Positions 14,491 to 61,700 are shown, counted from the first letter of the whole stretch. The stretch is 63,085 nucleotides of DNA, filler included, from Diploschistes diacapsis (GCA_023645945.1; 5 parts of 5 records of this genome joined end to end with filler, not necessarily neighbours in it); one strand, 5' to 3'. Translations and numbers: made by a program. The notes: generated by a model not told the origin, from the sequence alone.

Positions 14491-15489
<999 letters not shown>

Positions 15490-15930
15490 GCCTCACCTCA
15501 AAGTTCCTCGATATGTGGCGACAAAGGTAGAGCGAAAGTAGACCTCTTGTCCAGTTGTATTGCTGCCCCTCGCATCAGCAGGTGCATACTCGTCCGCCCG
15601 GACGGCAGGTCTGGGCGTTCAAAAGCCGTCAAATGGGGTGTGCTGTTTGGGCAGAGATCGCTGCCAAAAAGAAAACTGGGTGGTGGATCATGTACCGGAG
15701 GGTAATCTGTACATAGTCTTTTACACCATTGGCCATGTACAAAAGGGGTGGATGTGGAAAAAAAAGAGCAAAATCTGCACTCAAATTCAACCAAACCACA
15801 TTTTATTATGATGCCTACTCCCTCTTCGATATCTCCTCACAAGTTACCGCCACTCAGGTTCTACCGAATTGCTCGAAAGACCCAGAAGTCATTTCCAACG
15901 AAGTAGTCCAAGCACACATCACCTCACCAC

Positions 15931-17304
15931 TTACCAATGCGGAATAGGATAGTCCAGTGTCTCCAGTTTCTCCGGATACACCAGTCCGTTCTGCCTCCTC
16001 ACCTCATCCATAACCCTCATAATCACCACGCTCTCCTCCCAACCCAGCGTCTCGCTCTCCAGCTTCCCCTCCTTGATGCACCTTGCCACCTCATCCGCCT
16101 CGTACATGAACCCCCTTCCCCCACCCGGCATCTCCACCACGTGCTCTTCCACCAGACTCCTCCCCTTGCCCTCCGACGCCACCGCCGCGTTCCGCACGAT
16201 CCGCCACGTCGTCGGCCGGTACGCCGGGTGGTCCACCTGGATCTCGCCCTTGGTGCCCTGGATGCGGATGGCGGCGCCCGCGCTGCCGCGCCCGTCCGGG
16301 TCGGCGGCCACGCGCAGGTTCGTGGTTGCGATGCCGTGGGCGTAAGGCGCGCCGGCGGGGCCGGATGGGAAGGAGAGGAGGATGGAGGTCATCTCGTCGG
16401 CGCCCGTCTTGGGGTATTTGGTGATGAGGCTTTGGACGGACGTCGGGGCCTTGCGCTGCGAGGCGGGGAGGGTGTGGTAGAGGGTTTGGAAGACCCAGGT
16501 TAGGGAGTAGATGCCCACTGAGTCGCTGGTAGGTTAGCTCCGGGACTTTCCGCTTTTGAGTTGGAAGGGAAGGGAAGGGAAGGGAAGGGGGAATGGGGGC
16601 CGGCTTACAATCGAGTAGTGCCCCGCCAGCCAGATCCATGTTGACCATCCGATGCGTTGTGCCGAAGTCCTTCTCTACATCCTTGCACAGGCTCAGATCC
16701 GCAAACGTCCTGTGCACCTTTCCTATCTCCCCCGCTTCGATCGCCTTCCTTATCTGGATGCTCAGTGGGAAGTACCGTGTCCACACGGCCTCCATGAGGA
16801 AAAGCTTCTTTTCCCGCGCAACCTGCACCAGCTTCTCCGTCTGCGCCGCGTTCACGGTGAACGCCTTCTCGCATAGCACATGCTTGCCGTGTTCTAGGCA
16901 CAGCATCACGTTCTGATAGTGGTGGCTGTGCGGCGTCGCAACGTAGATGGCGTCCACGTTCGAGTCGGCGGCCAGGTCTTGATAGTTACCGTAGGCTTTT
17001 GCGGAGGACGGGCACCTCATTCCCTGAAGGAATTCCGAGGCGCGAGAGGAGCCGTTGCTCGAGGCTGCTGCCACGACTGTGTGAGCGACATCGGTGACGC
17101 CGCGCGTTGCAGGGTCGATTTGGATGTCTGTCACAAATTCTGTATGATTTGAGTCAGATCGAAATTTGGGCGCGAGAAAGACAATTGGGAAACCAACGTT
17201 CGGCGATCCAACCAGTTGCTGCCCATTCTTAGTGAAGCTTATAAAATCTTGACGTGAAGATGGGACATGCCTAGGATACCCCAACGTATAGTATGCGGAG
17301 CCAT
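15931..17304 (-). CDS. Gfo/Idh/MocA oxidoreductase (dihydrodiol / D-xylose dehydrogenase-like)
   Basis: MAPHTIRWGILATGWIA (first intron GC-AG, 17219-17270), YVATPHSHH, VLCEKAF, FLMEAVWTRYFP, GGALLD..GIY, GTKGEI, YEADEVARC. Confidence 0.93.
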
Positions 17305-17893
17305 GACGCAGGTTTAAAGCGTTTTAACTACTTGAAATATCCGTCTTGTATAATGGTGCGGAGGACCGTTGATTGCCGGCTAAGAATTTCTCATCAATAC
17401 AGACGTCTTCAGGGAACGTTATGAATTGAACATGTCTGGGGAGCCCATTATATGGCTCTTCCTCCATGACGCTATCAGTTGTTCAACTCGACTTCATTGG
17501 CGGGGCAAAACGTGGGGGATCTCCTAATACAATTCCTCAAAGAGGCAGCTGAAGCAAAGCCCACGAAGTATAGATTTTATGAAGCGTCTCCCATCAAGGA
17601 TTGGTCCAAGCATCGGCTTGTATCGGAAGAATTTCACGAAGCAAGGCGTGAAACGGATAGAATCAGGTATCAAAATTATATTGATGAACCGCTTTTCTAA
17701 ACTGTGGTGTATCCTGAACGATCTGAGACCTCTAGAGGTTCTCAACAGAGTCACTTGGGTATACTGCAAGGCAAATCAATGCGCACGGCTCATGCTTGCA
17801 CCGCGCTATGCAACACAGAACAAAAGAGAAGAAAAAACAGAGACGCAACTTCTACGAGTTGCTAAGGGATATGGCGCAAATAAGGAGCATACC

Positions 17894-20132
17894 TTATCCA
17901 CCGCCTTCCTTGAGAGCTTTGGCTGGCGATGGGTTGAGAGGATTGGCCGTTTCCTGGATCTGTTAGCACTCGGAAATCAGTCATGGAGCGATCGTAATGT
18001 CAACCCACCTCAGCTTTCCGTTTACCAAGAACAGAATCTGGTGTCGATACTCGAGGGGTATTGGATCCATCCTTTTTGAATTCAGCGTAGCAACTGGCGT
18101 GATATACGCGACCTCCGATCTTGACGGCATCCTTCCAAACGAAATCCTGGATTTCCTCGTTGTGGGAAACTTCAAATTTCTCCTGACAAATCGGACAAGG
18201 CATGCTTGCCAAGGTATTGTCACTAGGCACAGGAATATATTTATTTTTCGGGTCATCCTTGCGAGCTGCATCCGCCATTGACACCAGCCCATCTTTGCCT
18301 GTAGAGGGTGACTCGTCTCCAATCTCATCTCCATTTTCTCTAAACTTAGTCCATTCCTAAAACAAATCAGTACTTGCATGAATCATAAAGGCCCAATACT
18401 CACAATTTCGTCCACATACCAGCTTCTACTCAGACCACGCTGTGCAGACTCCACCAAACGCTGATTAGTATGAAAATGCCAGTCCAGATGTTTAGCTTTC
18501 CTTGACCGACCTTCTTCCGTTGCGAGGAATCGTTTTCCGCATGTAAGGCACTGGTTCGGTCGCGCTTCATAGAGTTTCGATACCAGATGCGGCCTCGGTC
18601 TACCCACGTTAGTAAACCACGAAAGCATACGAATGGGCTATCTCACATCTTCAGTGCAGCCGAATTAAGCTCGACGTGATCGGGATTACTTGGCTTACTA
18701 GGGTTTGTAGCAACTTGGCGAAGGAGGTCGGAGAGATTCACCGGCTGCGGCTGTGATGGCGGTGCTTGAGGAGTTGAGACCGGAGGCGTAGAAGTAATAC
18801 TAGTGCTTCCATTCCCACTATCCTTCAAAAGGCCAATTGCCCTTAATCGAGCAAGTAGAGGATTGCCCGTTGGTGCGGTAGATGCCTGTGCTGAGAACTG
18901 AGGTGGAGGGATTGGCGGCAATGATGGTGTCTGACCATTGGGTTGCGGCTGCATGTTTCTTTGAACAGAGGCAAGAAGATTAGCTAAGCTAGTAGATGGC
19001 GGTTGGAAGGGCTGCGGTTCTGGTGTCGGCTGTAGAGGTACGACCAAAGGTGGCGGCGCATACTGCGTCTGTGCTGGGGTATTGTATGACATGGGAGGCA
19101 TTCCAGCTACAGCGGATGGCATGGGGCTCTGCATTGAATTCTGTAGGGGCATAGGCGCAGCGGCTGGCATTTGGGGTCTTGAGCTCATCTGAAGATCCTT
19201 CACTTGATCACGAACAGCTTGAAGAGCTTCTGGTGCTAATTGCTGGTGCCTCAAGAGAGTTTGCAAGTCTACCAACGCCTTGAGCCTGGTTTGAAGCTCC
19301 GTATTACTAATATCTCGTACAAAGTCTTCTTTAGTACGGGCAATTAGATCTTCAATGTCTCTGTGCAGATAGTCCAGGTTGAAAGAAGACGCTTGAGTAG
19401 GATACTGCGGCACTGGTGGCCGCATCTGGTACTGCACTGGCGTTTGTGGCGGAGCATATTGGGAGATTTGGGGGTGCGGAGAGTGTGTCTGTCGACAAAC
19501 TTTAATATCATTACAGAGAACCGGCTCAGGAAACTTACACCAGTGTTGTGCCCATTGGCTTGTGGATAGCCCTGTGGTGTCGGTGGGGGATATCTAGTGA
19601 CATTCTGAGGGGGAGTTGGCGTACTTCGCCACTGTGTTGGGGCTGTAGCGCCAGGGGCGCGTCTTTGAAAAAGTTCTTGCTGAGCTCTTTGCTGTTGCTG
19701 CTCCGCCTGCAGCATTCGAGTCCGTGCTTGAATGAGGGCGTTTTCGATCTTCCTGGTAATCTCAACGGGAAAAACAGGCCTGGAGTCAATAGAGCCAGGC
19801 ACTGGACTCCGCCAGGTTTTCAGCATCTCATCCAGTTTCTTTCTCGTATTGCGATCCACAGTACTGTAGGCGTCCATGAAAGTGGAATACAGCCGATGAC
19901 CAAGGAACAGCGTGTAGGGGGTTCCGATATTCTTCGCGATGGAGTCAAGAACATAAAGTGCCGGAAGCTTATGGTCAGGCCGGGCTTTGCCGATATGTTC
20001 TATAAGCGCATTACATATTTCACTCGCAGATTCCGTATTTTCTCGAGCTATGACTGTATAGTTGTTGATTGCATATTTGTCGTTGGTAGTGAGGAATTCC
20101 AAGGAAGACTTGAAATCCTCTGCAACCTCCAT
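17894..20132 (-). CDS. PCF11: mRNA cleavage/polyadenylation factor Pcf11
   Basis: N-terminal CID (KLPALYVLDSIAKN), zinc fingers CLTCGKRF..HLDWHF and CPICQEKF..YHASC, SRSWYVDE. Four canonical introns. Confidence 0.95.
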
Positions 20133-49740: not shown

Positions 49741-50472
49741 TGCCACGGCTTGGTATTGTTACCTGCTCTTGCGCCAGATGGTCGTGGCCAAAAACTATTC
49801 TTCTCCAATATAAAGTCGTACCCAGGGTTGATATTGACTTCGGCTTGATATGCGAAAGGCTGAAGAAGGATTTACAGGGTGGTTACTCTGCCAGCTCAAC
49901 GGCATTTGGGTTTAGGAGTATCGGAACGAAGGTTTCAGTGTTGTCAAGGAAGCTGCTGAATCAGAGGCGCGATATCGAGGATGGGAAGGCAAGTCAAGTC
50001 GCAACGAATCCACAAGAGACGCTTAGGCTTAGGCGGTAGTGTATAACGAAGAATAGGTCGTTCTAGGCGAAGTCGCGTAGGAAATGATGGGTTGCTGCTT
50101 ATTCCCGATCGAGGTGGGACCAACAGACTCACAGATAAGGCCCCCCGGGTTATTTAGAGGCCACTTAGGGCGGAATCGGTTATTAATTATAGTTAGGTAG
50201 TCGAAGATGTCGAAAGCGAATTACTAGTCATGCATCGCAAAGATGGGGGGTACTCGAGCCGTGAGTGGACAGCTAGCAGTTACCAATTAGAAGCTAGTGG
50301 CCATGAAGAAGATGATGACGATGGCAAATGTAGGGAAGCTGTTGATAGGGAAATCGAGAACAGAAAAAAATAGACTGGGCGCAAGTTGTTTTGTCCTAGA
50401 GGGGTGAGAGCGAGAGAGAGAGAGAGTGAGAGTTCGGTTGATGAATAGGTGGGGGAGTAGTCGGGGTGGGGG

Positions 50473-50572
50473 NNNNNNNNNNNNNNNNNNNNNNNNNNNN
50501 NNNNNNNNNNNNNNNNTTAATTAATTAANNNNNNNNNNNNNNNNNNNNNNNNNNNNNNNNNNNNNNNNNNNN
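50473..50572. other. Artificial contig linker
   Basis: 44 N + TTAATTAATTAA + 44 N. Confidence 0.99.
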
Positions 50573-51030: not shown

Positions 51031-53607
51031 ATGGAAGTCAAAGAAGATCACTTCGTTCGAGTGATCACAGCTTTAGATTCAGAGCATGCTGTTGATGTTG
51101 GCAGACACCTTGTCAATCAGTTTAAGCCTGATGATCCTGGGAGGATCGCCAGAGCGAACACAATTGCAACCTATTTCGGAGAAGCATACAGACGAACCGG
51201 AAAGATCTGTTTCCTTGATGAAGCTACTGCCTTATCAAGAGAAGCGCTCGCAGCCTCGTCTATCAGCCATCCTTCCAGGGCCACGCTTCTAAGTAACCTG
51301 GCTGGTCATCTCGGAAGACGCTATGAGAAATACAAGAGGATGGCAGATTTAGAAGAAGGTCTCAAGCTCCTTCTTACCGCCGCCCAACATGACGAAAACG
51401 CACCTCATCGCGATGCTGTTCTCAATAATCTCGCCAATAAATACGTGAAGCTTTATGACAGGACGAAGGCTACCAAACATCTACACGAGGCTATCAGCAT
51501 TGCGCGAGAGTTATGTAATTTAGCTTCGAATGATGAATCTCGAGAAGCCCTGTATCTGAATTCTCTCGCCAACTGGCTCCGCATCCTCTTTAGCGAATCA
51601 GCAGATGAGGAAGATCTTGTAGCATCTATTCGGACTCACGAAAAAGCTCTGTCTAAGACGTCTGAAACGAACCCTTACTTCCCCGACCTTCTACACAATC
51701 TTGCTTTGAGCTTTTCTGACCTATATTCTTTGACTAATAACATAGAATGTATCGATCGAGCCGCTCAACATTCCAAGGAGGCATTGAAGCATTGCTCATC
51801 AGGCAATCCTCATCAAGCCGACTACCGTATTGCATTGGGTAATTCATTTCGGCTCCAATATTTCTTCAAAGGAAAACAGAGCGATCTTGATGCTGCTATG
51901 GCTCAGTTCAAGTCCGCGCTTGGTCTTGTGAACACGCCCATAAAATCCCGTATCTTAGCAGGAAGGTATCTCGCGCTTTGCGAACTCGGTGCTAGCAACT
52001 GGTCGGCTGCTTACACAGTATCAGCTGCGACCCTGGACCTCGTTCCTCTGCTTACCGCGGAGTCGTTTGAGATCTCAGACAAGCAGCACATACTTAGCGA
52101 GATTACAGGGTTAGCTTCTGATGCCGCTGCGACAGCCTTGATCTCCAAACAAAATCCATTCTATGCTGTCAGAATGCTAGAAATGGGTCGCAGTGTGCTT
52201 TTGAAATCTCAACAAGACTTGAGATCGGACCTCTCTAAACTGGAGAAAAAGCATTCTGATCTTGCCGAAGAGTACGAGAATCTGCGAGACGAACTCAGAG
52301 TACCAGTCAAGGATAATGCTGGTAACTCAACAACAGACGAGCACGATCAGGAAATCAGATTTCAGAGACAAGATACGTACCAGAAATTCCAGCGGTTATT
52401 GCCCATCATACGGGCCCAGCCTGGATTTGAGGACTTTCTGCAACCGCTTTCGGAAGAGCAAGCGCGACAGGCCGCTGTCAACGGTCCTATAGTAGTACTC
52501 AATGCCAGTGTCTATCGTTATGATGCTATAATCATTGAAACTCATCGGATCCGAGCCGTTGACCTTCCTGGGCTAGACCAATCAAAGACACAAGAGATGA
52601 TCCAAAAGCTTGCAACTCATTTAGGGGAGGTTCTCGAATGGCTCTGGAATATAGTCGCTAAGCCTGTATTGAGTGCTCTGGATCTGGCTCAAAATGTCTC
52701 TGATCTCTCAAAAGCGCCTCACATATGGTGGATTCCGACGGGAGCTATAAGCAGGTTTCCCATTCATGCCGCGGGCTGTCACGCCGCTTCATCAGGCCAG
52801 ACAGTAATGGACAGAGCAATCTCTTCCTACAGCGTCTCCCTTACAGCTCTGCTAAATAGTCGCTCTGCGAAACCTCCAGCACATGCACCACAGTCAGCTC
52901 TTCTTGTTTCAATGCGAAGCACTCCTATGCAGTCCGAGCTCCCAAATGCTAAGGCGGAGATCGAACAGATCGAAAAGTTTTGTAATTCGGCTTCTATCAC
53001 ATGTCTTCAGCCTACACCAGAAAAACAAGCTATTCTTGCTAACCTTCCCGCTTGTCAAATTTTTCATTTCGCCGGCCACGGTTTAGCATCCAAGAAAGAT
53101 CCGCTGCAAAGTTCTCTTTTGCTTCAGGACTGGCAGTCCGACAGGCTTACCGTGTTAGATATCATCCAAACTGATTTATATGCCTCTCGCCCCTTTCTTG
53201 CCTTCTTATCAGCATGCGGGACAGGAGAGGTTCGAGACCATAGCCTACTCGATGAAAATATTCATTTAATCAGTGCTTTTCAATCAGCTGGCTTTCGTCA
53301 TGCTATTGGAACACTTTGGAGGGTAGATGACGAAGCCGGTATGGAGATCGCTGATACGGTCTACAAAGAAATGATAGATGAAAAGTGGAGTGAGTCATCG
53401 GTGTGTATAGGGCTGCATCGCGCAATCAAGGGAATGAGGGACCGATGGGTGAATGACCGAAAAGAAAGCAAAACTGCACTGCGCAAGATCTCCAGAAGGA
53501 TGGATTTGTCTGACGATGATGATGATGATGATGATGATGATGAAGAAACAGGCGCTCTCGACTATAAAGCATTATTTTGGGTACCGTACGTTCATTTTGG
53601 GGTTTGA
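51031..53607 (+). CDS. TPR-repeat + CHAT domain caspase-family protease (858 aa; short upstream exon possible)
   Basis: Helical repeats (LSNLAGHLGRRY, LNNLANKY, LNSLANWL, LHNLALSF), LEMGR, IRAQPGFEDFL, LEWLWNIVAKPVL, IWWIPTG, PIHAAG, catalytic FHFAGHG (53062-53082) and FLSAC (Cys 53215-53217), AGFRHAIGTLW, WVPYVHFGV. Confidence 0.95.
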   Translation: MEVKEDHFVRVITALDSEHAVDVGRHLVNQFKPDDPGRIARANTIATYFGEAYRRTGKICFLDEATALSREALAASSISHPSRATLLSNLAGHLGRRYEKYKRMADLEEGLKLLLTAAQHDENAPHRDAVLNNLANKYVKLYDRTKATKHLHEAISIARELCNLASNDESREALYLNSLANWLRILFSESADEEDLVASIRTHEKALSKTSETNPYFPDLLHNLALSFSDLYSLTNNIECIDRAAQHSKEALKHCSSGNPHQADYRIALGNSFRLQYFFKGKQSDLDAAMAQFKSALGLVNTPIKSRILAGRYLALCELGASNWSAAYTVSAATLDLVPLLTAESFEISDKQHILSEITGLASDAAATALISKQNPFYAVRMLEMGRSVLLKSQQDLRSDLSKLEKKHSDLAEEYENLRDELRVPVKDNAGNSTTDEHDQEIRFQRQDTYQKFQRLLPIIRAQPGFEDFLQPLSEEQARQAAVNGPIVVLNASVYRYDAIIIETHRIRAVDLPGLDQSKTQEMIQKLATHLGEVLEWLWNIVAKPVLSALDLAQNVSDLSKAPHIWWIPTGAISRFPIHAAGCHAASSGQTVMDRAISSYSVSLTALLNSRSAKPPAHAPQSALLVSMRSTPMQSELPNAKAEIEQIEKFCNSASITCLQPTPEKQAILANLPACQIFHFAGHGLASKKDPLQSSLLLQDWQSDRLTVLDIIQTDLYASRPFLAFLSACGTGEVRDHSLLDENIHLISAFQSAGFRHAIGTLWRVDDEAGMEIADTVYKEMIDEKWSESSVCIGLHRAIKGMRDRWVNDRKESKTALRKISRRMDLSDDDDDDDDDDEETGALDYKALFWVPYVHFGV

Positions 53608-53774: not shown

Positions 53775-55949
53775 TTATGTTTTGCCATTCTTCTTAGGTA
53801 CAATACGAACTGTGAAACTTTGGTAAGCCCATCTAACAGGTTTTTGATCGCCCCTCAGCTGCGTGTCGCCGAAGCTCTCTGAGCCTAAAGGCGCAAAATC
53901 TGAGTCATTTGGATCTCTACTAGCATCTACCAGATCCCAAAGTTCGGGCAGCTCCATTGTGGATGTACCGCGGATTGGACGGTTACTAATGACAAACTTT
54001 AGCACGTCTTCAATCTGCACGCCTTCGTCTACCTTCATCCTCTCGGGCAAATTTGCCGAAGGCCGAAAAGAAACAGTTCCAGACGGCTTCAATTCTCTAG
54101 CTTTTACGCTTGGAAGCACATCCGCTAGATCTCTTGGTAGGACTGCTTGACACTCCTTGTGGGCTGGGTAGAGCTTCTTGATCTTATAAAGCGGCGTCAG
54201 ATTCAGGACGGTGAAATAGAGGATGTCGTGTGTATGATTTCTGAACTCGACTGAGATCTTCGATCCATCTGTAACTTCAATGCAGCCATCTTGAAGTACG
54301 ATAGTAGGATCGTTTTTGACTTGTGCGTGAATGGCAAATTCACTCTCACGCAGTGAGTTAGCTTTCTTGTTATCCAGAGTTTGAATGAACGCAAACTTTG
54401 CCAAATGCTCGAGCATTGTTAGAAGGATTTTTTTTGTATCGCCGTTTAATAATTTAAGGCTTGGAAGGTTGGGAACCTCCTTCTGTGAGTCATGAATCTT
54501 ATATTGTTGGTTTTTGTTGGCCCTTACCAGGAAGTGCGGATGATCGATTGGTGCTACATCTTTTAGTGAAAGCGGTCGAAGCCAAATGCTCTGATTGAGC
54601 ATCCGATCCAATTCTTCGTCTCCTTCAAAAAGGTACTTCACATAAGCCCGAGGCTGAGCTAATGCTTCAAGTGTAGCGAAAGAGCCCACTTGGATCGGTT
54701 GTCGTGCCTGTTCTAAATGTCCTGTCAAGACTGATTCTGCCACAGACTGTACAGCTTGAACATCTGTGACCACAACTCGACTTCTTCCCTCTTCCGCTCC
54801 CCCTGGCAAATGAACATCATATTCATCCCCAGTGTTGACTCCCTGAACGAGTCCTGCATTCAGCCATATCTGTCCACTCTCACCCACCTTTACCACCTCG
54901 CAATCAGCCTCAACGCCTTTGCCCTGAACCACATCGTCACCTATGAAGATCGTCTCTTTCACACCGATTAGAACAGGACTCTGCCCAACAACCGTAGTAT
55001 ACATCTTGGAGGCAACCCTCCTGTAGATCACATCACATGAAACGTTTTCAATCCCTTTCCTCAGACAAAAATCCAGCGCCTCAAGCACATGATACGACAG
55101 CGCCCCATTCCACTGTTCCCCACCGAGATCCAGCTCTCTTGCAACCTCGTGCGGTCCACAAGCCGTCAGCAGTCCATAGCCCCGTGGGTTTAAAAGCCAA
55201 TGGCTCCGGACATGCGCATCTCGAAATACCCTGTCTTTGACCTTCTTCTTTCGTTCCCTATCCTCCTTTGCCGCATTCTCCATCTCCCTTTGCAGCTCAT
55301 ACAGCAAGGGGAATTCTTTGCCCGCGACTTCGTCCCATGGTATACCACGCACAGTTCCTGGCGCGGCGTCCGTGCGTGACACGCTGCCGGAGTGGCATGA
55401 GTCTAGCACGACGATCACGCGCAGCTGTTTTTGCACGAGAGAGTCTAGGAGCAGCGCTAGCTCGATGCCGTGTAGATACCGGACGCTTAGTTGTTGCTGC
55501 TGCTGCTGCTGCGGATCTGCTGTGGCAAAAGAAGAAGAAGAAGAAGAAGGTGGTGGTGGTGGTTCGAGCAGCACCAGCGCAGCATCGGTGTCATAGTGCT
55601 CCGCATAGGGCAGACTAGAGTGCTGAGTCGGCCGGATAGCACCATGGCCCGAGTAGTGCACGTAGACTATATCGTCGGGGCTTGCAGCTTTCTCAATGTG
55701 ACGGAATGCGGCGGTGATGTTGGCGAAGGTGGGCCACTGGGCGCGTGGCGTTGTTAAGGTTGTTGGTGGTTGTGTTTGGTGGGAGGGATTGGAGGGATTC
55801 TGGGCGGAAAATTTGAGGGTTGTGATGGAGTGGAAGTGGGATTGGAGGTAGAGCTCGATATCGTCGATGTCGTTTATGGCACCTCGGAGACAGTGGGACG
55901 GGTTAGGATAGAAGTTGATGCCTATGAGGAGAAGCCAGGTGTGTGGCAT
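53775..55949 (-). CDS. Caspase-like peptidase C14 with long C-terminal extension (724 aa, single ORF)
   Basis: LLLIGINFY, LRGAINDI, PTFANI, HYSGHG (55641-55658), LDSCHSG (55386-55403), LTACGPHEVARE, GALSY, QSP. C-terminal LNAGLVQGV and FRNHTHDILYFTVLNLTPLYKIKKLYP segments. Confidence 0.93.
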   Translation of the reverse strand: MPHTWLLLIGINFYPNPSHCLRGAINDIDDIELYLQSHFHSITTLKFSAQNPSNPSHQTQPPTTLTTPRAQWPTFANITAAFRHIEKAASPDDIVYVHYSGHGAIRPTQHSSLPYAEHYDTDAALVLLEPPPPPSSSSSSFATADPQQQQQQQLSVRYLHGIELALLLDSLVQKQLRVIVVLDSCHSGSVSRTDAAPGTVRGIPWDEVAGKEFPLLYELQREMENAAKEDRERKKKVKDRVFRDAHVRSHWLLNPRGYGLLTACGPHEVARELDLGGEQWNGALSYHVLEALDFCLRKGIENVSCDVIYRRVASKMYTTVVGQSPVLIGVKETIFIGDDVVQGKGVEADCEVVKVGESGQIWLNAGLVQGVNTGDEYDVHLPGGAEEGRSRVVVTDVQAVQSVAESVLTGHLEQARQPIQVGSFATLEALAQPRAYVKYLFEGDEELDRMLNQSIWLRPLSLKDVAPIDHPHFLVRANKNQQYKIHDSQKEVPNLPSLKLLNGDTKKILLTMLEHLAKFAFIQTLDNKKANSLRESEFAIHAQVKNDPTIVLQDGCIEVTDGSKISVEFRNHTHDILYFTVLNLTPLYKIKKLYPAHKECQAVLPRDLADVLPSVKARELKPSGTVSFRPSANLPERMKVDEGVQIEDVLKFVISNRPIRGTSTMELPELWDLVDASRDPNDSDFAPLGSESFGDTQLRGDQKPVRWAYQSFTVRIVPKKNGKT

Positions 55950-56309: not shown

Positions 56310-56679
56310 TCATCCATCAGCAGTCCTCTCAAGCCTCGTTTCTTCAAACTCAGCACCTTCGTCTACCATTGTCCCGTCAGCGGCACACAGCGTATATCTG
56401 ACCGGCACAACAGTTGCATTGACGCCTGCAATAATGAACGGGCCTCTGCGGGCGCCGATGCCAGCCTTGATGTAGATTTTGTCATCACTCCTATGGAATT
56501 GTGGTTCTTGTGAGCCTTGCGTGTAGTAGGGACGCTCGCCAGAGACTTTGAAGGATTCGGTATCGAAGTTGTGACTAATTGAAGGCAAGCAGAAGAATTA
56601 GTAACAAAAAGTGGATGAGGGATTTGGCAAAAGAAAGACGCTGTGACACAGAAGAGTAGAAGGACGCGCACCGTGACAT
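56310..56679 (-). CDS. Small (~90 aa) protein, predicted beta-barrel/SH3-like; 2 exons
   Basis: 8-nt exon ATGTCACG (56679-56672) + intron GTGCGC..CTAAT..TAG (56671-56575) + exon 2 gives MSRHNFDTESFKVSGERPYYTQG...FHRSDDKIYIKAGIGARRGPFIIAGV...YTLCAADG..EFEETRLE. Confidence 0.75.
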
Positions 56680-57609: not shown

Positions 57610-58717
57610 ATGATGACTAACAGAGCACAAGAAACAAGTACCCAGGATTCCAAACCCCCCTGCAAATAGCAAAGGATGTTAACCCATGATGAGCAGTTGA
57701 GCGCTCACCTCCGGGATATCCCCAGTTTTCCGCGCTCATAGGAGTCCATCCGGCATTCAGCGTGTCAGCTCGATTCCCCGTCGCTCGTGCGCGGCTTCTA
57801 CTGCGGAAGCAGCAACGCGCGTTAGTGCTGGAAAAGAGGCTCGAGGAGTTAGATCTTCAAGAGCAGAAGCCTCTCTACCTAGGAAGCTTCGAGTCCGACA
57901 GGAATGAGGCTAGGATTCAGGTTCTGGGGGAGCTTGATGAAGCCTTGAAAGATTATGGTTAGTAAAATGGCAGCGCCTAGCAGTGAAGATGGGCAATCTT
58001 CATTGAGTCAAGGACGACGGACTGTTCGGTAGATATAGAGGCGCTGACAGTAATTTTGACACATAGATGACCTACTGCAGCGGAGCGTGGCGGTCTTACA
58101 CCTGCCCCGAGCGCCGCAGAGGAGCATCGATAGTCTTGTGAACTGGATCAAAGGGACAGGAAGCATCTCCCGCAAGGAAGCTAACTTTCTGGAAAGATTA
58201 GATCTCTGTATACTCGGCGGTTCCGAAGGACCGACCCCAGCATGGATAGAATCGTGCATCGAACGCATCATTATTTCCGTGCAGCAGCGCTTCAAAGTCC
58301 GTACACACATTTTTCGAATACATAAGAAAGCTGAACGCTTGTCTAGATTTCGGCAGCTGGCCCATCTCGACAGCAACGGGTTTTCATCTTTGAAGGGCCT
58401 GCCTTCCGCATCATTGCGCATTCCTGTATCACCGTCATTGTGGTTATGTTGTTGCTTATTCCCGTGGCTATCCTTCGTTCGACATCCAGCGCTATACAAC
58501 AAATGGTATGCATCACGCTGACCTCAGTGTTGTTCACCATCGTTCTTTCTGGATCAATGAATGCAAGACCGGGAGAGATCTTTGGTGCTAGCGCTACGCA
58601 AGTCTTCCCGAACAACCTTTCATCTTCAATGCTGATCCTGGTTGTAGTTATGTTGCCTTGTTGGTTATCTTCCTCACCTCACAGCCTTCGGGTCAGGCAA
58701 CACAAACAAAATATTGA
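57610..58717 (+). CDS. DUF6594-like membrane protein (5 exons; ~3 C-terminal TM helices)
   Basis: Spliced ERSPPGYPQFSALIG..RARLLLRKQ..LEKRLEELD..DRNEARIQVLGELDEALKDYDDLL..SLVNWI..EANFL..DL, then TM segments ending EIFGASATYVALLVIFL. Last intron is GC-AG (58598-58647). Confidence 0.85.
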
Positions 58718-58791
58718 TCTTCAGTGAATGGTTCTAGCCTCGCTTTCGTCAGAAACGCCGTTCAGCGCTGAGAAGAGTGAACCGATAGACT

Positions 58792-61700
58792 CTAAGCGCC
58801 ATAATGAATATAGGGCACCCAAAGAAAATTAGTTTCGTGTTCCATGCCTCCATCACTATCGTCATCGTCATCTGTTAACGTTAAATCTCTCCCCTTGCGG
58901 TTTACGCCATCGATGACCGTAGGCGTTGAGGCTGCCTTTTCCGTTTCCACGCCCTCCTTCAGAATAGATTCGTCTCTGAGCGTCCGCAATGCGCAGTGTA
59001 ATCCTAGCGCGACTGCGGTATCAGTCAAGCCTTTCTCGCAAAGCGTTTGATACAGAATACTCGCTACTTTGACACATTGTTGGTCAGCAACCTCCCACAG
59101 TGTCCCGATCACATGCCGGAATCCAGCCAGCTGGCAAGCCGCGACAAGGTTTAAGCCTTCGTCATACAGCTTTTCCTCCTCGCTAGCACTAGTAAAACAA
59201 GCAGAAAGGTAAGCAAGAAAAGGCGAATTCTTGTATAGTCGGAGGTCACGTAAATGTCCTACTGTTAAGGGGCTTCTTTCCCAGTCCTCAAGGAGTAAAC
59301 TGCTCTTAGATGGCTCAATCATGTCAGTGCGTCCATGACCAGCAAAATGAAATATTTCAGACGTCTTCATAAGGTCGAGAACCTTTTCTCGACTCTGTTG
59401 CTGTGGCCTTATTGGATGTAGCTTCAAAGATCCACAGAGAGTTTGAACCTCGTCAATCTCTTCCTTTGCATACTGTAGGGCGGGCGGATCACCGGGCGTT
59501 ATAGGCATAGCTACCAAAAGCGCATTTTCCAGGCGAGAATCTCTTTTGAGTCTAGTGCTATGCCCATGCTTGCGACCATGGATCAGTGATTTGACTGTTA
59601 AGCTGTACGAGGAGATCACTCGATCGAGTACAGTATTCCCAAGCCTTTCCATATGGCGCCCAGCTGCATGTAACGGTAAACGGCTGATCAAACCTGTTGG
59701 AATCCACCGAACATGAGGCCACTCATCGCCTGTGATTGGATGATCAAAACCCAGTGCATGAAGACATGGTTCTGCAATATCTTCCCAAAGCCATTCCAAT
59801 AAAGAAATCATACTCAAAAGATCCTTTGCCGAGTGCAGCTGCCGAACATGCATACTGACTTCTTCAGCGGTAAGACTAGAGAGTTTGAGTACCCTGATCT
59901 GGTGGGTTTCGATTAGGATTGCATCACAACGGAAGTCATCGACATTGATAATGATAATCGGACCTGGTTTGGCAGCGTCCTTAAGATCGATTTCGCTTGG
60001 TGGCAAAAGGAATCTGGATAAACCCGGCTGAGCACGTATCTCGTCAATGACTTCATTGAACCTCTGGTCGGCATCGCGGCGCTTTTTCCCTTTTAATTCA
60101 TCCGCTAGTACATTGGAGGAATCGTACTGATTAGCAGCAATAGTGTCCGCTGGCTGATCTAGCTCATCTCGAAGCGAGACAAATTCAGCAGCTAATAAGT
60201 CAGGACAAACACCCTCAAGCTGTAGGGCATCTTCTCGTAGGTCCATTAAGAAGCTTGCAATGACACCACGTCCCAGTTCTAGGAGGCTGAGAACTTCGTA
60301 AGGGTTTCTATCCTCTTTTGTCCGCAAACCATAGGCTGCAGCGCGGGAGGCTAAACCAGAATATGATTTCAGCATGTCTTGTTTGTAAATATGCCTCACC
60401 CATCGTGGGCTTGCAACTGGGAGAAGATTCACAGCCTCTTCAAGACATGCACTCGAGCCTTCCCAGTCTTCTTCTAAATCCAAGAGATATGTTACTGTCT
60501 CCGCAGCAAAGATTCTCTTGGAAGGCTGAGCATTGCTAAAATCCCACTGCTCTTTCAAAATTTGAAGATAAGGCTTGACTTCGAGCAAAGATTGGGTCTT
60601 CTGGCATCTGAGCGAAAGCGCTGATGCAAACTCGGTGAATGCTTGGAGTTTTCTTGAGTGATTTGCTTCTGTGTTTGTAAGCACGGCGTAGGCTATTGTT
60701 ATCGCACGGTCGCTGTTCTCTGCTAAGCCTGTCGCACGGTAACGATCGTTCAGGAAAGCTCCCTTCAATCCTTCTCTCCGCATTCGGTCTGGGTCTCCCT
60801 GGGGCGTAGATTGTATCGCTTCTTCCATAGTCTGAATTGCACGATCGATATCTTCGAGCGATCCTGTCTTAGAAAATCGAGTCGAAAGAGCTTTTCCTAA
60901 GGAAGCTAGCCACATAGGTCGGCCATAATATTCGAGAGGAAGAGATTGAATAATTTCTCTTAGAGTCTCTATGCTATGACTTCCGGCCTCGATGGACCGG
61001 TCGCGTGCCAACTTGTAAACAGATATCAGTGCATGACCTTTTTGCTGGGATAGCTGGTATGAAGAATGGATCGTTGTTGCTGCGACTCCTTGGGTAGCAA
61101 TTTCAATGGCATGCTCGAGATCTTCAATAGATCGAGTCTTTTGCCAGCGTGCAGCAAGAATACCTCCTAAGAGATGGAGCTGAGATGCCCGATCAAAATG
61201 ATCTGGAGGTGTAAGCTTTAATGCCTCACTGCAGAGCTCCGCACTCTGATTCCGATCTTCCAAGGAATCAAATTGTTCAGATCGAGTAAAGAGGTCCTTG
61301 CTAAGATTTTTTAAAAATGGACCGCGATCTGGGTGATTTAGCGGTATCAACTTCAGATTTTCGTTCGTCATTTCAATTGAACGCTGAAGATCTTCGATCG
61401 ATCCACTGCATTTATACCTGTCTGAAAGCGCGCCTCCAACGTTGCTCAACAAACCTAATCTGCGGACATCTTCTGGAGCAGCTCGATTAAGCGCTTCGAA
61501 TTGAAGATCAATGGAGCGATTGAGATCGTGTATAGAACTAGTCTGATGGTATCGATTCCAGAGGTTAAGCCCGAGTCTGGAGAGCCTGACTGGATTGCTG
61601 GGCTCGTTCGAAGACATTTGCAAGGCTTTAGTGCCAATAAGTATAGCGTAGTCGAGATCTTCTAAAAATCCCGTCTGCTCAGCTTGAACGCTAAGTAAGA

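Follow-up and report, generated by a model that had tools for sequence, protein, structure and literature searches.

The 63,085-nucleotide stretch of Diploschistes diacapsis DNA analyzed here (GCA_023645945.1; five parts of five records joined end to end with filler, and referred to below as the window) carries a gene, P0001, for a cysteine protease of the Peptidase_C14 family. It is flanked on one side by a gene for a TPR-CHAT protease (P0002) and on the other by a gene for a DUF6594 membrane protein, beyond which lies a second TPR-CHAT gene (Table 1). Judged by its sequence, the window is fungal nuclear DNA; Pfam also recognized CRAL_TRIO, HOOK, p450, and DUF7371 genes in it, as well as the DUF6594 gene in its separate exon pieces.

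Table 1. Features of the C14 protease locus and its neighbors (positions counted from the first nucleotide of the window; conservation counts are from one alignment of 23 fungal, 55 bacterial, and 10 outgroup rows)
Feature	Position	Strand	Description and support
C14 protease gene P0001	53775..55949	-	724-codon uninterrupted open reading frame (ORF), no internal stop, stop codon included (ORF listing, translation)
Peptidase_C14 (PF00656) domain	54975..55937	-	Residues 5-325; Pfam E 2.1e-11, 44.4 bits against a cutoff of 21.4
Catalytic His102 in HYSGHG	55644..55646	-	23/23 fungal, 55/55 bacterial, 7/10 outgroup rows
Low-complexity insert	55491..55562	-	Residues 130-153 (24 residues), Pro/Ser/Gln runs in a protease-domain loop; lineage specific (A1 alignment)
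Catalytic Cys185 in DSCHSG (residues 183-188)	55395..55397	-	23/23 fungal, 55/55 bacterial, 7/10 outgroup rows
Arg201 (GTVR/GI)	55347..55349	-	16 residues past the catalytic Cys, short strand 200-202; 23/23 fungal, 55/55 bacterial, 10/10 outgroup rows
Arg243 (VFR/DAH)	55221..55223	-	Linker 236-253, pLDDT < 50; 23/23 fungal, 47/55 bacterial, 8/10 outgroup rows
D1, small beta-barrel	54657..54911	-	Residues ~347-431, holds IWLNAG..GDEY; C-terminal model
D2, alpha/beta domain with long helix	54375..54632	-	Residues ~440-525, conserved LEHLxKF; model secondary structure
D3, Ig-like beta-sandwich	53787..54362	-	Residues ~530-721; C-terminal model and VIA-align
DUF4384-like core of D3	54147..54275	-	Residues 559-601; hhalign
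Disordered loop	53847..53912	-	Residues 680-701, with Arg699-Gly700, ahead of the last strand (Trp707); pLDDT < 50
Neighbor 1, TPR-CHAT protease P0002, 858 aa	51031..53607	+	Convergent, 168 bp from the C14 stop; Pfam CHAT E 7.5e-36
Neighbor 2, DUF6594 membrane-protein gene, at least 3 exon pieces	57693..58727	+	Divergent from C14, 1.74 kb; Pfam E 4e-11, 1e-6, 1e-8
Neighbor 3, second TPR-CHAT protease, 1178 aa	58792..62328	-	Pfam CHAT E 1.1e-27, plus TPR_10

The C14 protease and its tail

The frame of P0001 is closed by a stop 19 codons ahead of its ATG, and in alignment A1 (23 rows) most proteins start no more than about 10 residues from the first strand (five have longer N-terminal stretches). 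Because of this stop and the start points of the relatives, no Pro/Gln-rich prodomain is seen in P0001, an upstream exon being the formal alternative. A previous sequence-only reading of the locus had placed the C14 domain at about residue 3, without an Mca1-type prodomain, and had noted about 390 extra residues after it; in agreement with this, the Pfam match starts at residue 5, and we counted 389 residues after position 335. Its motif positions were correct to within 2 nt: IWLNAGLVQGVNTGDEYDV is residues 361-379 (54813-54869), GSKISVEFRNHTHDILYFTVLNLTPLYKIKKLYP is residues 562-595 (54165-54266), and GTVRGI (residues 198-203, with Arg201) and VFRDAH (residues 241-246, with Arg243) both lie C-terminal to Cys185.

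Pfam found nothing credible in P0001 besides Peptidase_C14, a match shared by 23 of 23 fungal family members. The match reaches position 221 of the 233-position profile at residue 325, and the model has strands and helices at residues 258-329, after the linker, features that could correspond to a p10-like region, which orthocaspases in the strict sense lack. Around the catalytic dyad, Asp183, two residues ahead of Cys185, is present in every row (23/23 fungal, 55/55 bacterial, 10/10 outgroup), Asp27 is present in 23/23 fungal and 55/55 bacterial rows (the outgroup rows are all gaps), and Arg192 is present in 23/23 fungal, 53/55 bacterial (with Lys in the other two), and 7/10 outgroup rows; Ser100 is present and conserved in the family alignment. 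The LRGAIND motif of P0001 aligns with LHGCIND in AtMC9 and LRGCIND in Yca1, and HMMER alignments to these two proteins place Asp27, Ser100, and Asp183 opposite residues of the Arg/Lys-specific pocket of metacaspases, those facing Asp27 and Asp183 being acidic. In TbMC2, the substrate-coordinating residues are reported to be Cys92, Asp95, Ser159, and Asp211 (PMC6426788). By analogy, P0001 would be expected to cut after Arg or Lys, which the same source describes as a family property of metacaspases and orthocaspases (PMC6426788).

The predicted model of the whole protein (predicted local distance difference test score [pLDDT], 78.9; predicted template-modeling score [pTM], 0.82) is of low confidence at residues 189-198, 236-253 (which include Arg243), and 680-701 (which include Arg699). 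Searched with Foldseek against solved structures, it matched AtMC9 (E, 1.5e-11; probability, 1.00), GSU0716 of Geobacter (9.8e-11), and then AtMC4 and, at 2.3e-8, Yca1. The modeled protease domain thus has a caspase/hemoglobinase fold of the metacaspase kind, and P0001 is probably an active protease. The NCBIfam family NF047832 ("caspase, EACC1-associated type") gave P0001 only 23.8 bits against a cutoff of 140, and 12 bacterial homologs scored 15 to 51 bits.

The 24-residue Pro/Ser/Gln insert in the protease domain occurs in none of the other 22 A1 proteins, and its DNA consists of (CCA)n, (TCT)n, and (CAG)n. A retained intron was ruled out as its source because the stretch contains no GT donor.

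In phmmer searches, P0001 matched Yca1 (4f6o) over residues 7-104 only (E, 3.9e-4; 22.3 bits) and, among other solved chains, Candida glabrata MCA1 (7qp0) at 1.5e-3 and AtMC9 at 3e-4. The family profile matched metacaspases at E values of 1e-20 to 1e-22, limited to profile positions 10-174, and a search with residues 1-200 at an E value of ≤1 returned no canonical metacaspase among its matches, the weakest of which were 627- to 726-aa proteins annotated with PF00656 and PF14326. Since the Yca1 match is confined to residues 7-104 and the fold matches are metacaspases, P0001 is, as far as these comparisons reach, metacaspase folded but not an Mca1 ortholog. The sequence-only reading had likewise called it a noncanonical C14 protease and no Mca1-type metacaspase, a description borne out by the contrast between the short Yca1 match and the match to bacterial proteins of about 700 aa (E, 3e-52 over residues 5-593).

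These comparisons bear on whether P0001 might be an ordinary housekeeping metacaspase, that is, a divergent equivalent of Mca1/Yca1 acting in protein quality control. It shares with Mca1/Yca1 the fold and the HYSGHG and DSCHSG motifs, and metacaspases are its nearest solved structures by both profile and fold. However, P0001 lacks the Pro/Gln-rich prodomain, adds a three-domain tail of 389 residues, has bacterial relatives that are homologous from end to end, and is encoded in a cluster with CHAT proteases, so that we regard a housekeeping role of this kind as very improbable.

A model of the tail alone (residues 336-724; 38-row alignment; pLDDT, 83.5; pTM, 0.83) has three parts, D1, D2, and D3. 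The best fold match of D1 in VIA-align was 8z5n_5, a flagellar LPHT-ring entry (Z, 10.5; root-mean-square deviation [rmsd], 2.6; 77 residues aligned), followed at Z scores of 8 to 9 by the N-terminal barrels of F1, V1, and type III secretion system (T3SS) ATPases, HerA, and MreC. We infer that the matched 8z5n chain is FlgT; weak Pfam FlgT_C matches in 5 of 23 fungal and 2 of 20 bacterial members agree with the D1 fold match. VIA-align, which barely covered D2, returned no fold match for it, and His515 in this domain is present in 21/23 fungal and 55/55 bacterial rows. D3 matched RbmA (4be5_A; Z, 8.3; rmsd, 3.2; 107 aligned) and, at Z scores of 7 to 8, pilus chaperones, MSP, and the MG domains of alpha-2-macroglobulin, scores in the range that VIA-align calls common; Foldseek of the C-terminal model against the Protein Data Bank (PDB) gave only generic beta-sandwiches, two of them at an E value of ≤0.001 with a TM score of about 0.2. 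Toward the end of D3, Arg699 is found in 14/23 fungal rows (Lys in 2 more), 47/55 bacterial rows (Lys in 5 more), and 2/10 outgroup rows, and Trp707 is found in 23/23 fungal, 54/55 bacterial, and 3/10 outgroup rows.

The sequence-only reading had likened the region now assigned to D3 to the DUF4384-type domain fused to bacterial caspases. At the level of Pfam this did not hold: DUF4384 (PF14326; cutoff, 27 bits) gave no match on P0001 at an E value of ≤1, and elsewhere it matched 2 of 23 fungal members (best E, 0.015) and none of 20 bacterial homologs of about 700 aa at an E value of ≤0.01. As a remote match, the likeness stood. DUF4384 segments were Pfam positive in 31 of 121 cyanobacterial genomes, many of them within frames of 730 to 760 aa that begin with a C14-like domain where checked, and when the fungal D3 columns were compared by hhalign with 31 Pfam-positive cyanobacterial segments, 43 of 85 columns aligned with a probability of 95.6% (E, 1.2e-8); these columns correspond to residues 559-601, where the motif singled out in the sequence-only reading lies. 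Control comparisons with the same target (the C14 domain, D1, D2, and reversed D3) gave probabilities of <1% and E values of ≥0.06. The alignment of the C-terminal family against a single Pfam-positive cyanobacterial ORF gave a probability of 74% (E, 2.8e-5) over 141 columns covering D3. The top ESM Atlas cluster for the tail, which serves only as a lead, was a bacterial "DUF4384 domain-containing protein" (score, 0.95; 217 of 256 features). The C terminus therefore does show similarity by hhalign to a domain associated with bacterial caspases, and D3 is, on these profile comparisons, a remote DUF4384 relative below the Pfam level, in which only the first half of the DUF4384 domain aligns.

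In two cyanobacterial genomes (G002 and G005; loci L080 and L081), frames of 730 to 740 aa have a C14-like domain with the dyad replaced (HYSGYG, DTSYY), the same barrel/helix layout, and a Pfam-level DUF4384 domain. These frames, which are distant sisters of the P0001 family, resemble the Tyr/Ser pseudo-orthocaspases of PMC6426788.

Relatives in bacteria and fungi

To survey prokaryotes, we scanned one genome per species with the family alignment and obtained 584 pattern matches, of which 272 were confirmed by tblastn; the loci described here are the best 79 of these 272. The top bacterial loci were in Microcoleus, Scytonema, Lyngbya, Calothrix, and other filamentous cyanobacteria, and others were in Chloroflexota, Sorangium/Minicystis, Planctomycetota, Acidobacteriota, Rhodothermota, Verrucomicrobiota, and one Methanotrichaceae archaeon. 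Coverage of P0001 by tblastn ran from residue 2 to about residue 600, and it spanned residues 1-718 at L019 and 2-720 at L057. ORFs at the best 79 loci were about 650 to 800 aa long, most of them about 700 aa, in keeping with the bacterial-style architecture proposed in the sequence-only reading. The match to the Lyngbya sp. PCC 8106 ORF in BLASTP had 27% identity over 632 columns. Pfam on 20 bacterial ORFs found no domain past the N-terminal C14 in 20 of 20, save for subthreshold Peptidase_C13, CHAT, and FlgT_C matches, and the PADLOC "caspase" profile PDLC02987 (453 positions) matched P0001 over residues 2-519 (E, 1.2e-22) and 4 of 7 bacterial ORFs nearly end to end. On this evidence from sequence, P0001 belongs to a family of about 700 residues that is common to Pezizomycotina and mostly filamentous or multicellular bacteria.

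Among fungi, a full-length search with P0001 found 39 proteins at an E value of ≤0.001, nearly all of 570 to 757 aa, and the named relatives of full length were from Trapelia coarctata (53% identity), Varicellaria, Lecanora helva, Colletotrichum, Achaetomium, and Cryphonectria. An exhaustive phmmer search with the C-terminal 389 residues alone returned 162 representative clusters at an E value of ≤1e-3 (36 at ≤1e-10). Most of these were proteins of 650 to 700 aa in which the match began near residue 300, i.e., of the same architecture, and a simple pattern for both catalytic motifs was found in 82 of 145 relatives from this search, many of the remainder being fragments. Further named members came from Ascochyta rabiei, Corynespora cassiicola, Sarocladium strictum, Elasticomyces elasticus, Aspergillus pseudoustus, and Caloplaca, so that the named members span four classes of Pezizomycotina (Lecanoromycetes, Sordariomycetes, Dothideomycetes, and Eurotiomycetes). 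Their existing annotations are "hypothetical" or "caspase domain-containing" throughout. An index search with the C-terminal alignment yielded eight proteins among the matches listed, all of them family members and none carrying a bacterial name, and was uninformative about bacteria.

With 39 full-length relatives and 162 clusters matching the tail alone, P0001 is conserved far more than chance would allow. The gene might alternatively be what is left of an ancient transfer, decaying or no longer functional, for which one could point to the microsatellite-like 24-residue insert within the protease domain and to the transposases that adjoin the homolog at L113 (described below). The 724-codon frame is intact, however, none of the catalytic and pocket residues has been lost across 23 to 38 relatives, which also share about 16 to 30 invariant columns, and the family has named members in all four classes, which makes decay scarcely credible.

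A tree of 88 rows and 700 columns was built with a quick IQ-TREE search (LG+C20 PMSF), with SH-like approximate likelihood ratio test (SH-aLRT) supports only and with 10 DUF4384-bearing cyanobacterial frames as the root; eukaryotic metacaspases were not among its rows. The 23 fungal rows formed one clade (SH-aLRT, 95), whose joint node with a bacterial sister clade had a support of 97. The sister clade (SH-aLRT, 99) held 51 bacterial or archaeal rows together with the proteins P0038, P0039, and P0109, which are probably bacterial and were counted as such because the tree placed them among bacterial rows. A Roseiflexaceae row sat on a long branch outside both clades, and P0001 paired with the Trapelia protein (SH-aLRT, 99).

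The tree indicates that the fungal family is old and, as sampled, of single origin, standing as a sister to the sampled bacteria rather than nested inside them. Transfer from bacteria to early Pezizomycotina would be the simplest reading of the distribution, although the tree does not prove the direction. A recent transfer from a cyanobacterial lichen partner was rejected because the fungal rows form a single clade outside the sampled bacteria; the fungal members also include non-lichen fungi.

Gene neighborhoods in fungi and bacteria

The two TPR-CHAT proteins of the window are paralogs (30% identity over 926 columns; E, 9e-113), and both keep their His and Cys motifs (FHFAGHG and LSACGTG in the P0002 translation). 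Both also have a poly-Asp run followed by a shared end motif, WVPY(V/I)H(F/Y)G (53440-53500 on the plus strand and 58860-58900 on the minus strand); the CHAT protein at locus L112 keeps the motif without the long Asp run. An assembly gap (an N run, X in translations) lies at about 50280-50520, some 0.5 kb ahead of the P0002 gene. The last piece of the DUF6594 gene carries hydrophobic helices, and the 1.7-kb divergent spacer between it and the C14 gene contains a 92-aa ORF (56310-56588, minus strand) that has no family match and is probably not a gene.

A metagenome scan gave 79 further loci, which by best BLAST match to the tree rows comprised 22 of the fungal clade, 56 bacterial, and 1 unclear. 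Four pairs of fungal-clade loci were near identical (≥98.5% DNA identity), leaving 18 distinct loci of 22. A CHAT-like ORF was present at 9 of the 18 (8 scoring >100 bits), and Pfam confirmed CHAT at L112, L134, L144, L150 (two), L151, L161, L176, and L178. The N-terminal exon of DUF6594 was found at 10 of 18 distinct loci (12 of all 22), always 0.9 to 3.1 kb from the C14 gene, and at none of 135 bacterial loci (56 metagenome and 79 genome loci). CHAT and DUF6594 occurred together at 7 of 18, and the window has all three genes. Its layout, DUF6594 <- -> C14 -> <- CHAT, was found again at L144 and L151, with a different gene order at other loci. The recurrence of the CHAT linkage across fungi and the membership of the DUF6594 gene in the cluster had both escaped the sequence-only reading.

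By sequence identity, the partner genes track the protease. P0002 and the L112 CHAT protein are 39% identical and the respective C14 proteins are 40% identical, P0002 is 34 to 43% identical to the CHAT proteins of L144, L151, L161, L176, and L178, and the DUF6594 N-terminal exons are 45 to 51% identical to the copy in the window where the C14 proteins are about 25 to 40% identical. The DUF6594 exon contains near-invariant Arg residues at positions 26, 27, 32, 34, 67, and 74. In the ESM Atlas this exon matched DUF6594 clusters only, and a predicted complex of P0001 with it, run without controls, scored 0.00.

Several fungal loci carried additional genes of note. A second C14 paralog of similar size lies in the same cluster at L134 (2789-4876, minus strand) and L176 (12431-14344, plus strand). 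ORFs containing only TPR (TPR_10/TPR_12) and cut by a contig end adjoin the C14 genes at L161 (2-2011, minus strand) and L115 (11706-12254, plus strand), and these may be further TPR-CHAT genes that were missed in the counts. At L113, which holds the second-closest fungal homolog, DDE_3 and DDE_1/Tc5 transposase ORFs (14788-18683) adjoin the C14 gene, with no CHAT or DUF6594 within 10 kb.

For bacteria, we scanned the 3-kb flanks of 22 loci (74 ORFs). A STAND NTPase (nSTAND1, NACHT, or NB-ARC) and/or a giant WD40 neighbor was found at 11 of 22 loci, a CHAT neighbor at 5 (L008, L023, L028, L030, and L057), and another C14 gene at 2. Our own CHAT profile detected a flanking CHAT-like ORF at 10 of the 79 genome loci and, among the bacterial loci from metagenomes, at 16 of 56. 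The founding paper on conflict systems of multicellular bacteria reportedly appeared in eLife in 2020. Neighborhoods of the type found here have been described as such conflict systems (bioRxiv 10.1101/2023.09.22.558884). In Lyngbya/Limnoraphis, the homolog has as its convergent neighbor a 153-aa ORF with a helical N-terminal part and a hydrophobic helix at its C terminus (L018, 5177-5635, and L029, 5168-5626, both on the minus strand). It had no family match in Pfam or NCBIfam and could be a small membrane partner.

A putative proteolytic module

Taken as a whole, the explanation that we favor, with somewhat better than even confidence, is that P0001 is an intact clan CD cysteine protease of the metacaspase/orthocaspase kind, predicted to be active and self-maturing, and that it belongs to a regulated trio with CHAT and DUF6594. 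The enzyme would be made in a latent form and matured by a cut in the flexible stretch past the catalytic Cys, most likely by P0001 itself, as is reported for the one characterized orthocaspase, while the tail would hold or target the enzyme. The trio would act as one regulated proteolytic module of a cell-death or non-self-response type, with the TPR-CHAT protein as a sensor or partner protease and the DUF6594 membrane protein as a likely downstream target or anchor. The order of protease action and the role of DUF6594 as a target are speculative.

For the maturing cut, Arg243 is the best candidate because it is conserved and sits in a linker that the model predicts to be disordered, with Arg201 as the alternative. 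The sequence-only reading had proposed both sites as CHAT cuts. The sites themselves stand up, in that both follow Cys185 and are strongly conserved; their assignment to CHAT does not fare as well, since they are equally conserved in bacterial homologs, most of which have no CHAT gene in the flanks that were scanned. This pattern of conservation favors self-processing over CHAT cleavage. Separase cleaves after Arg, which says little about the TPR-CHAT proteases here. Orthocaspases are reported to "specifically autoprocess," and release of p20 is needed for MaOC1 activity (PMC5756287).

CHAT cleavage would nevertheless make sense as a two-tier cascade in which one or both of the TPR-CHAT neighbors activate the C14 protein by cutting after Arg201 or Arg243. 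CHAT lies beside C14 twice in the window and recurs at half of the distinct fungal loci, the CHAT proteins of the window have intact His and Cys motifs, the Arg sites are conserved (with Arg243 in the flexible linker), and a fungal TPR-CHAT protease is on record as cleaving the product of the adjoining gene, a gasdermin (PMC8851545). Against this, Arg201 is kept in 55 of 55 and Arg243 in 47 of 55 bacterial rows, although CHAT flanks so few of the bacterial loci, and the one characterized orthocaspase is reported to process itself (PMC5756287). We therefore consider such a cascade unlikely, if the most serious of the alternatives.

Less likely still, in our view, is a reverse or parallel wiring, in which the C14 protease acts on TPR-CHAT or DUF6594 or in which a single sensor drives the two proteases separately and CHAT makes no cut in the C14 protein. 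Of the neighbors, DUF6594 is the most constant and the best conserved, it has near-invariant Arg residues, and the orthocaspase MaOC1 is reported to cleave a protein encoded by neighboring genes (PMC7935541), but 8 of the 18 distinct fungal loci lack DUF6594, as does every bacterial locus.

A number of observations weigh against self-maturation within a regulated trio as we propose it. Neither partner was found at 6 of 18 distinct fungal loci, among them L113, which has 10 kb of sequence on each side; of these six, three are flanked by little sequence on one side, and at one (L115) the sequence ends in a TPR fragment. The nearest relative, L112, has CHAT but no DUF6594 in 5.6 kb upstream. Because of these partnerless loci and L112, the trio is frequent but not obligatory. 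The enrichment of CHAT and DUF6594 rests on a rough assumption of tens of such genes per ~40-Mb genome, under which a chance neighbor within a few kilobases would be expected at about 1% of loci. At the level of the protease, the position of the TbMC2 pocket residue Cys92 is occupied in P0001 by Ala24, as placed through the HMMER alignments to AtMC9 and Yca1, and Arg201 is retained in three outgroup rows that lack the dyad, which would suit a structural residue as much as a site of cleavage; because it is kept after loss of the dyad, Arg201 may be structural. Finally, bacterial CHAT neighbors (L023, L028, and L180) match P0002 only locally, over 95 to 121 residues. Because the likeness is only local, the C14-CHAT pairing was not simply inherited as a cassette, and transfer of C14 and CHAT together as one bacterial cassette is unsupported.

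Among the closest known systems are the C14B orthocaspases of cyanobacteria and other bacteria that carry DUF4384, with which P0001 shares an N-terminal C14 without a prodomain, the HC dyad, the acidic pocket residues, a length of about 700 residues (about 600 of them collinear with P0001), and a last Ig-like domain that matches DUF4384. Such C14 plus DUF4384 orthocaspases have already been described in cyanobacteria (PMC8283722, PMC6426788), and DUF4384 is listed in 23 of 473 cyanobacterial orthocaspases (PMC8283722, Table 1). P0001 differs in being fungal and nuclear encoded, in having a DUF6594 partner, and in having a last domain below the Pfam threshold, as in the closest bacterial proteins of about 700 aa. 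MaOC1 of Microcystis aeruginosa, the one biochemically characterized orthocaspase, is comparable by description only: it is a basic-P1 C14 protease whose self-processing frees p20 and whose substrate is encoded by a neighbor (PMC5756287, PMC7935541). Unlike P0001, it is described as having no defined C-terminal domain (PMC5756287), and its neighbor is a toxin-antitoxin pair.

The trio also recalls the fungal gasdermin and HET-Q2-like clusters, which are described as two- to three-gene Pezizomycotina clusters combining a TPR-CHAT gene with the gene for the cleaved product (PMC8851545, PMC12881547); such clusters have counterparts in bacteria and are proposed to act in regulated cell death. Here the partners are instead the C14 enzyme and the DUF6594 membrane protein, and Pfam matched no gasdermin family either in the window or around the C14 genes of 10 fungal loci, although fungal gasdermins may escape Pfam. 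By extension, the trio could be an undescribed Pezizomycotina cell-death or non-self pathway, a caspase-like cascade of two steps, in which the TPR-CHAT sensor fires, the C14 protease matures at its Arg linker, and DUF6594, cut at a conserved Arg, damages membranes, with a core derived from bacterial conflict systems and DUF6594 in the place of gasdermin; taken with all of its steps, this scenario is doubtful.

Cyanobacterial C14 plus DUF4384 orthocaspases and fungal protease/gasdermin clusters are thus already known. What is new here is a recurrent fungal C14/TPR-CHAT/DUF6594 gene trio, which looks from its sequences like an undescribed cell-death or defense module. Our literature search found no paper naming DUF6594, and the papers naming DUF4384 dealt, by their titles and abstract openings, with prokaryotic proteins or unrelated topics. 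The searched text of fungal cell-death reviews and of PMC8851545 (its supplementary datasets left aside) contained no mention of the fungal family or of the trio, and "metacaspase" and "C14" occur 0 times in the searched text of PMC12881547.

Work on fungal cell death centers on Mca1-type metacaspases and on CHAT and S8 proteases, and a second, bacterial-type C14 family can now be placed in four Pezizomycotina classes. Its association with TPR-CHAT and DUF6594 points to a candidate proteolytic module that is new and concrete enough to test and that, if true, would provide the first functional lead for DUF6594 and would add to the case for shared ancestry between fungal immune-like gene sets and the conflict systems of multicellular bacteria.

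A further likeness, of layout only, is to the paracaspase MALT1, where an Ig-like domain comes after the caspase fold. MALT1 places behind the metacaspases and lacks the intervening beta-barrel and alpha/beta domains, and its caspase-Ig3 structure was matched by Foldseek at E values of about 2e-6 to 4e-6.

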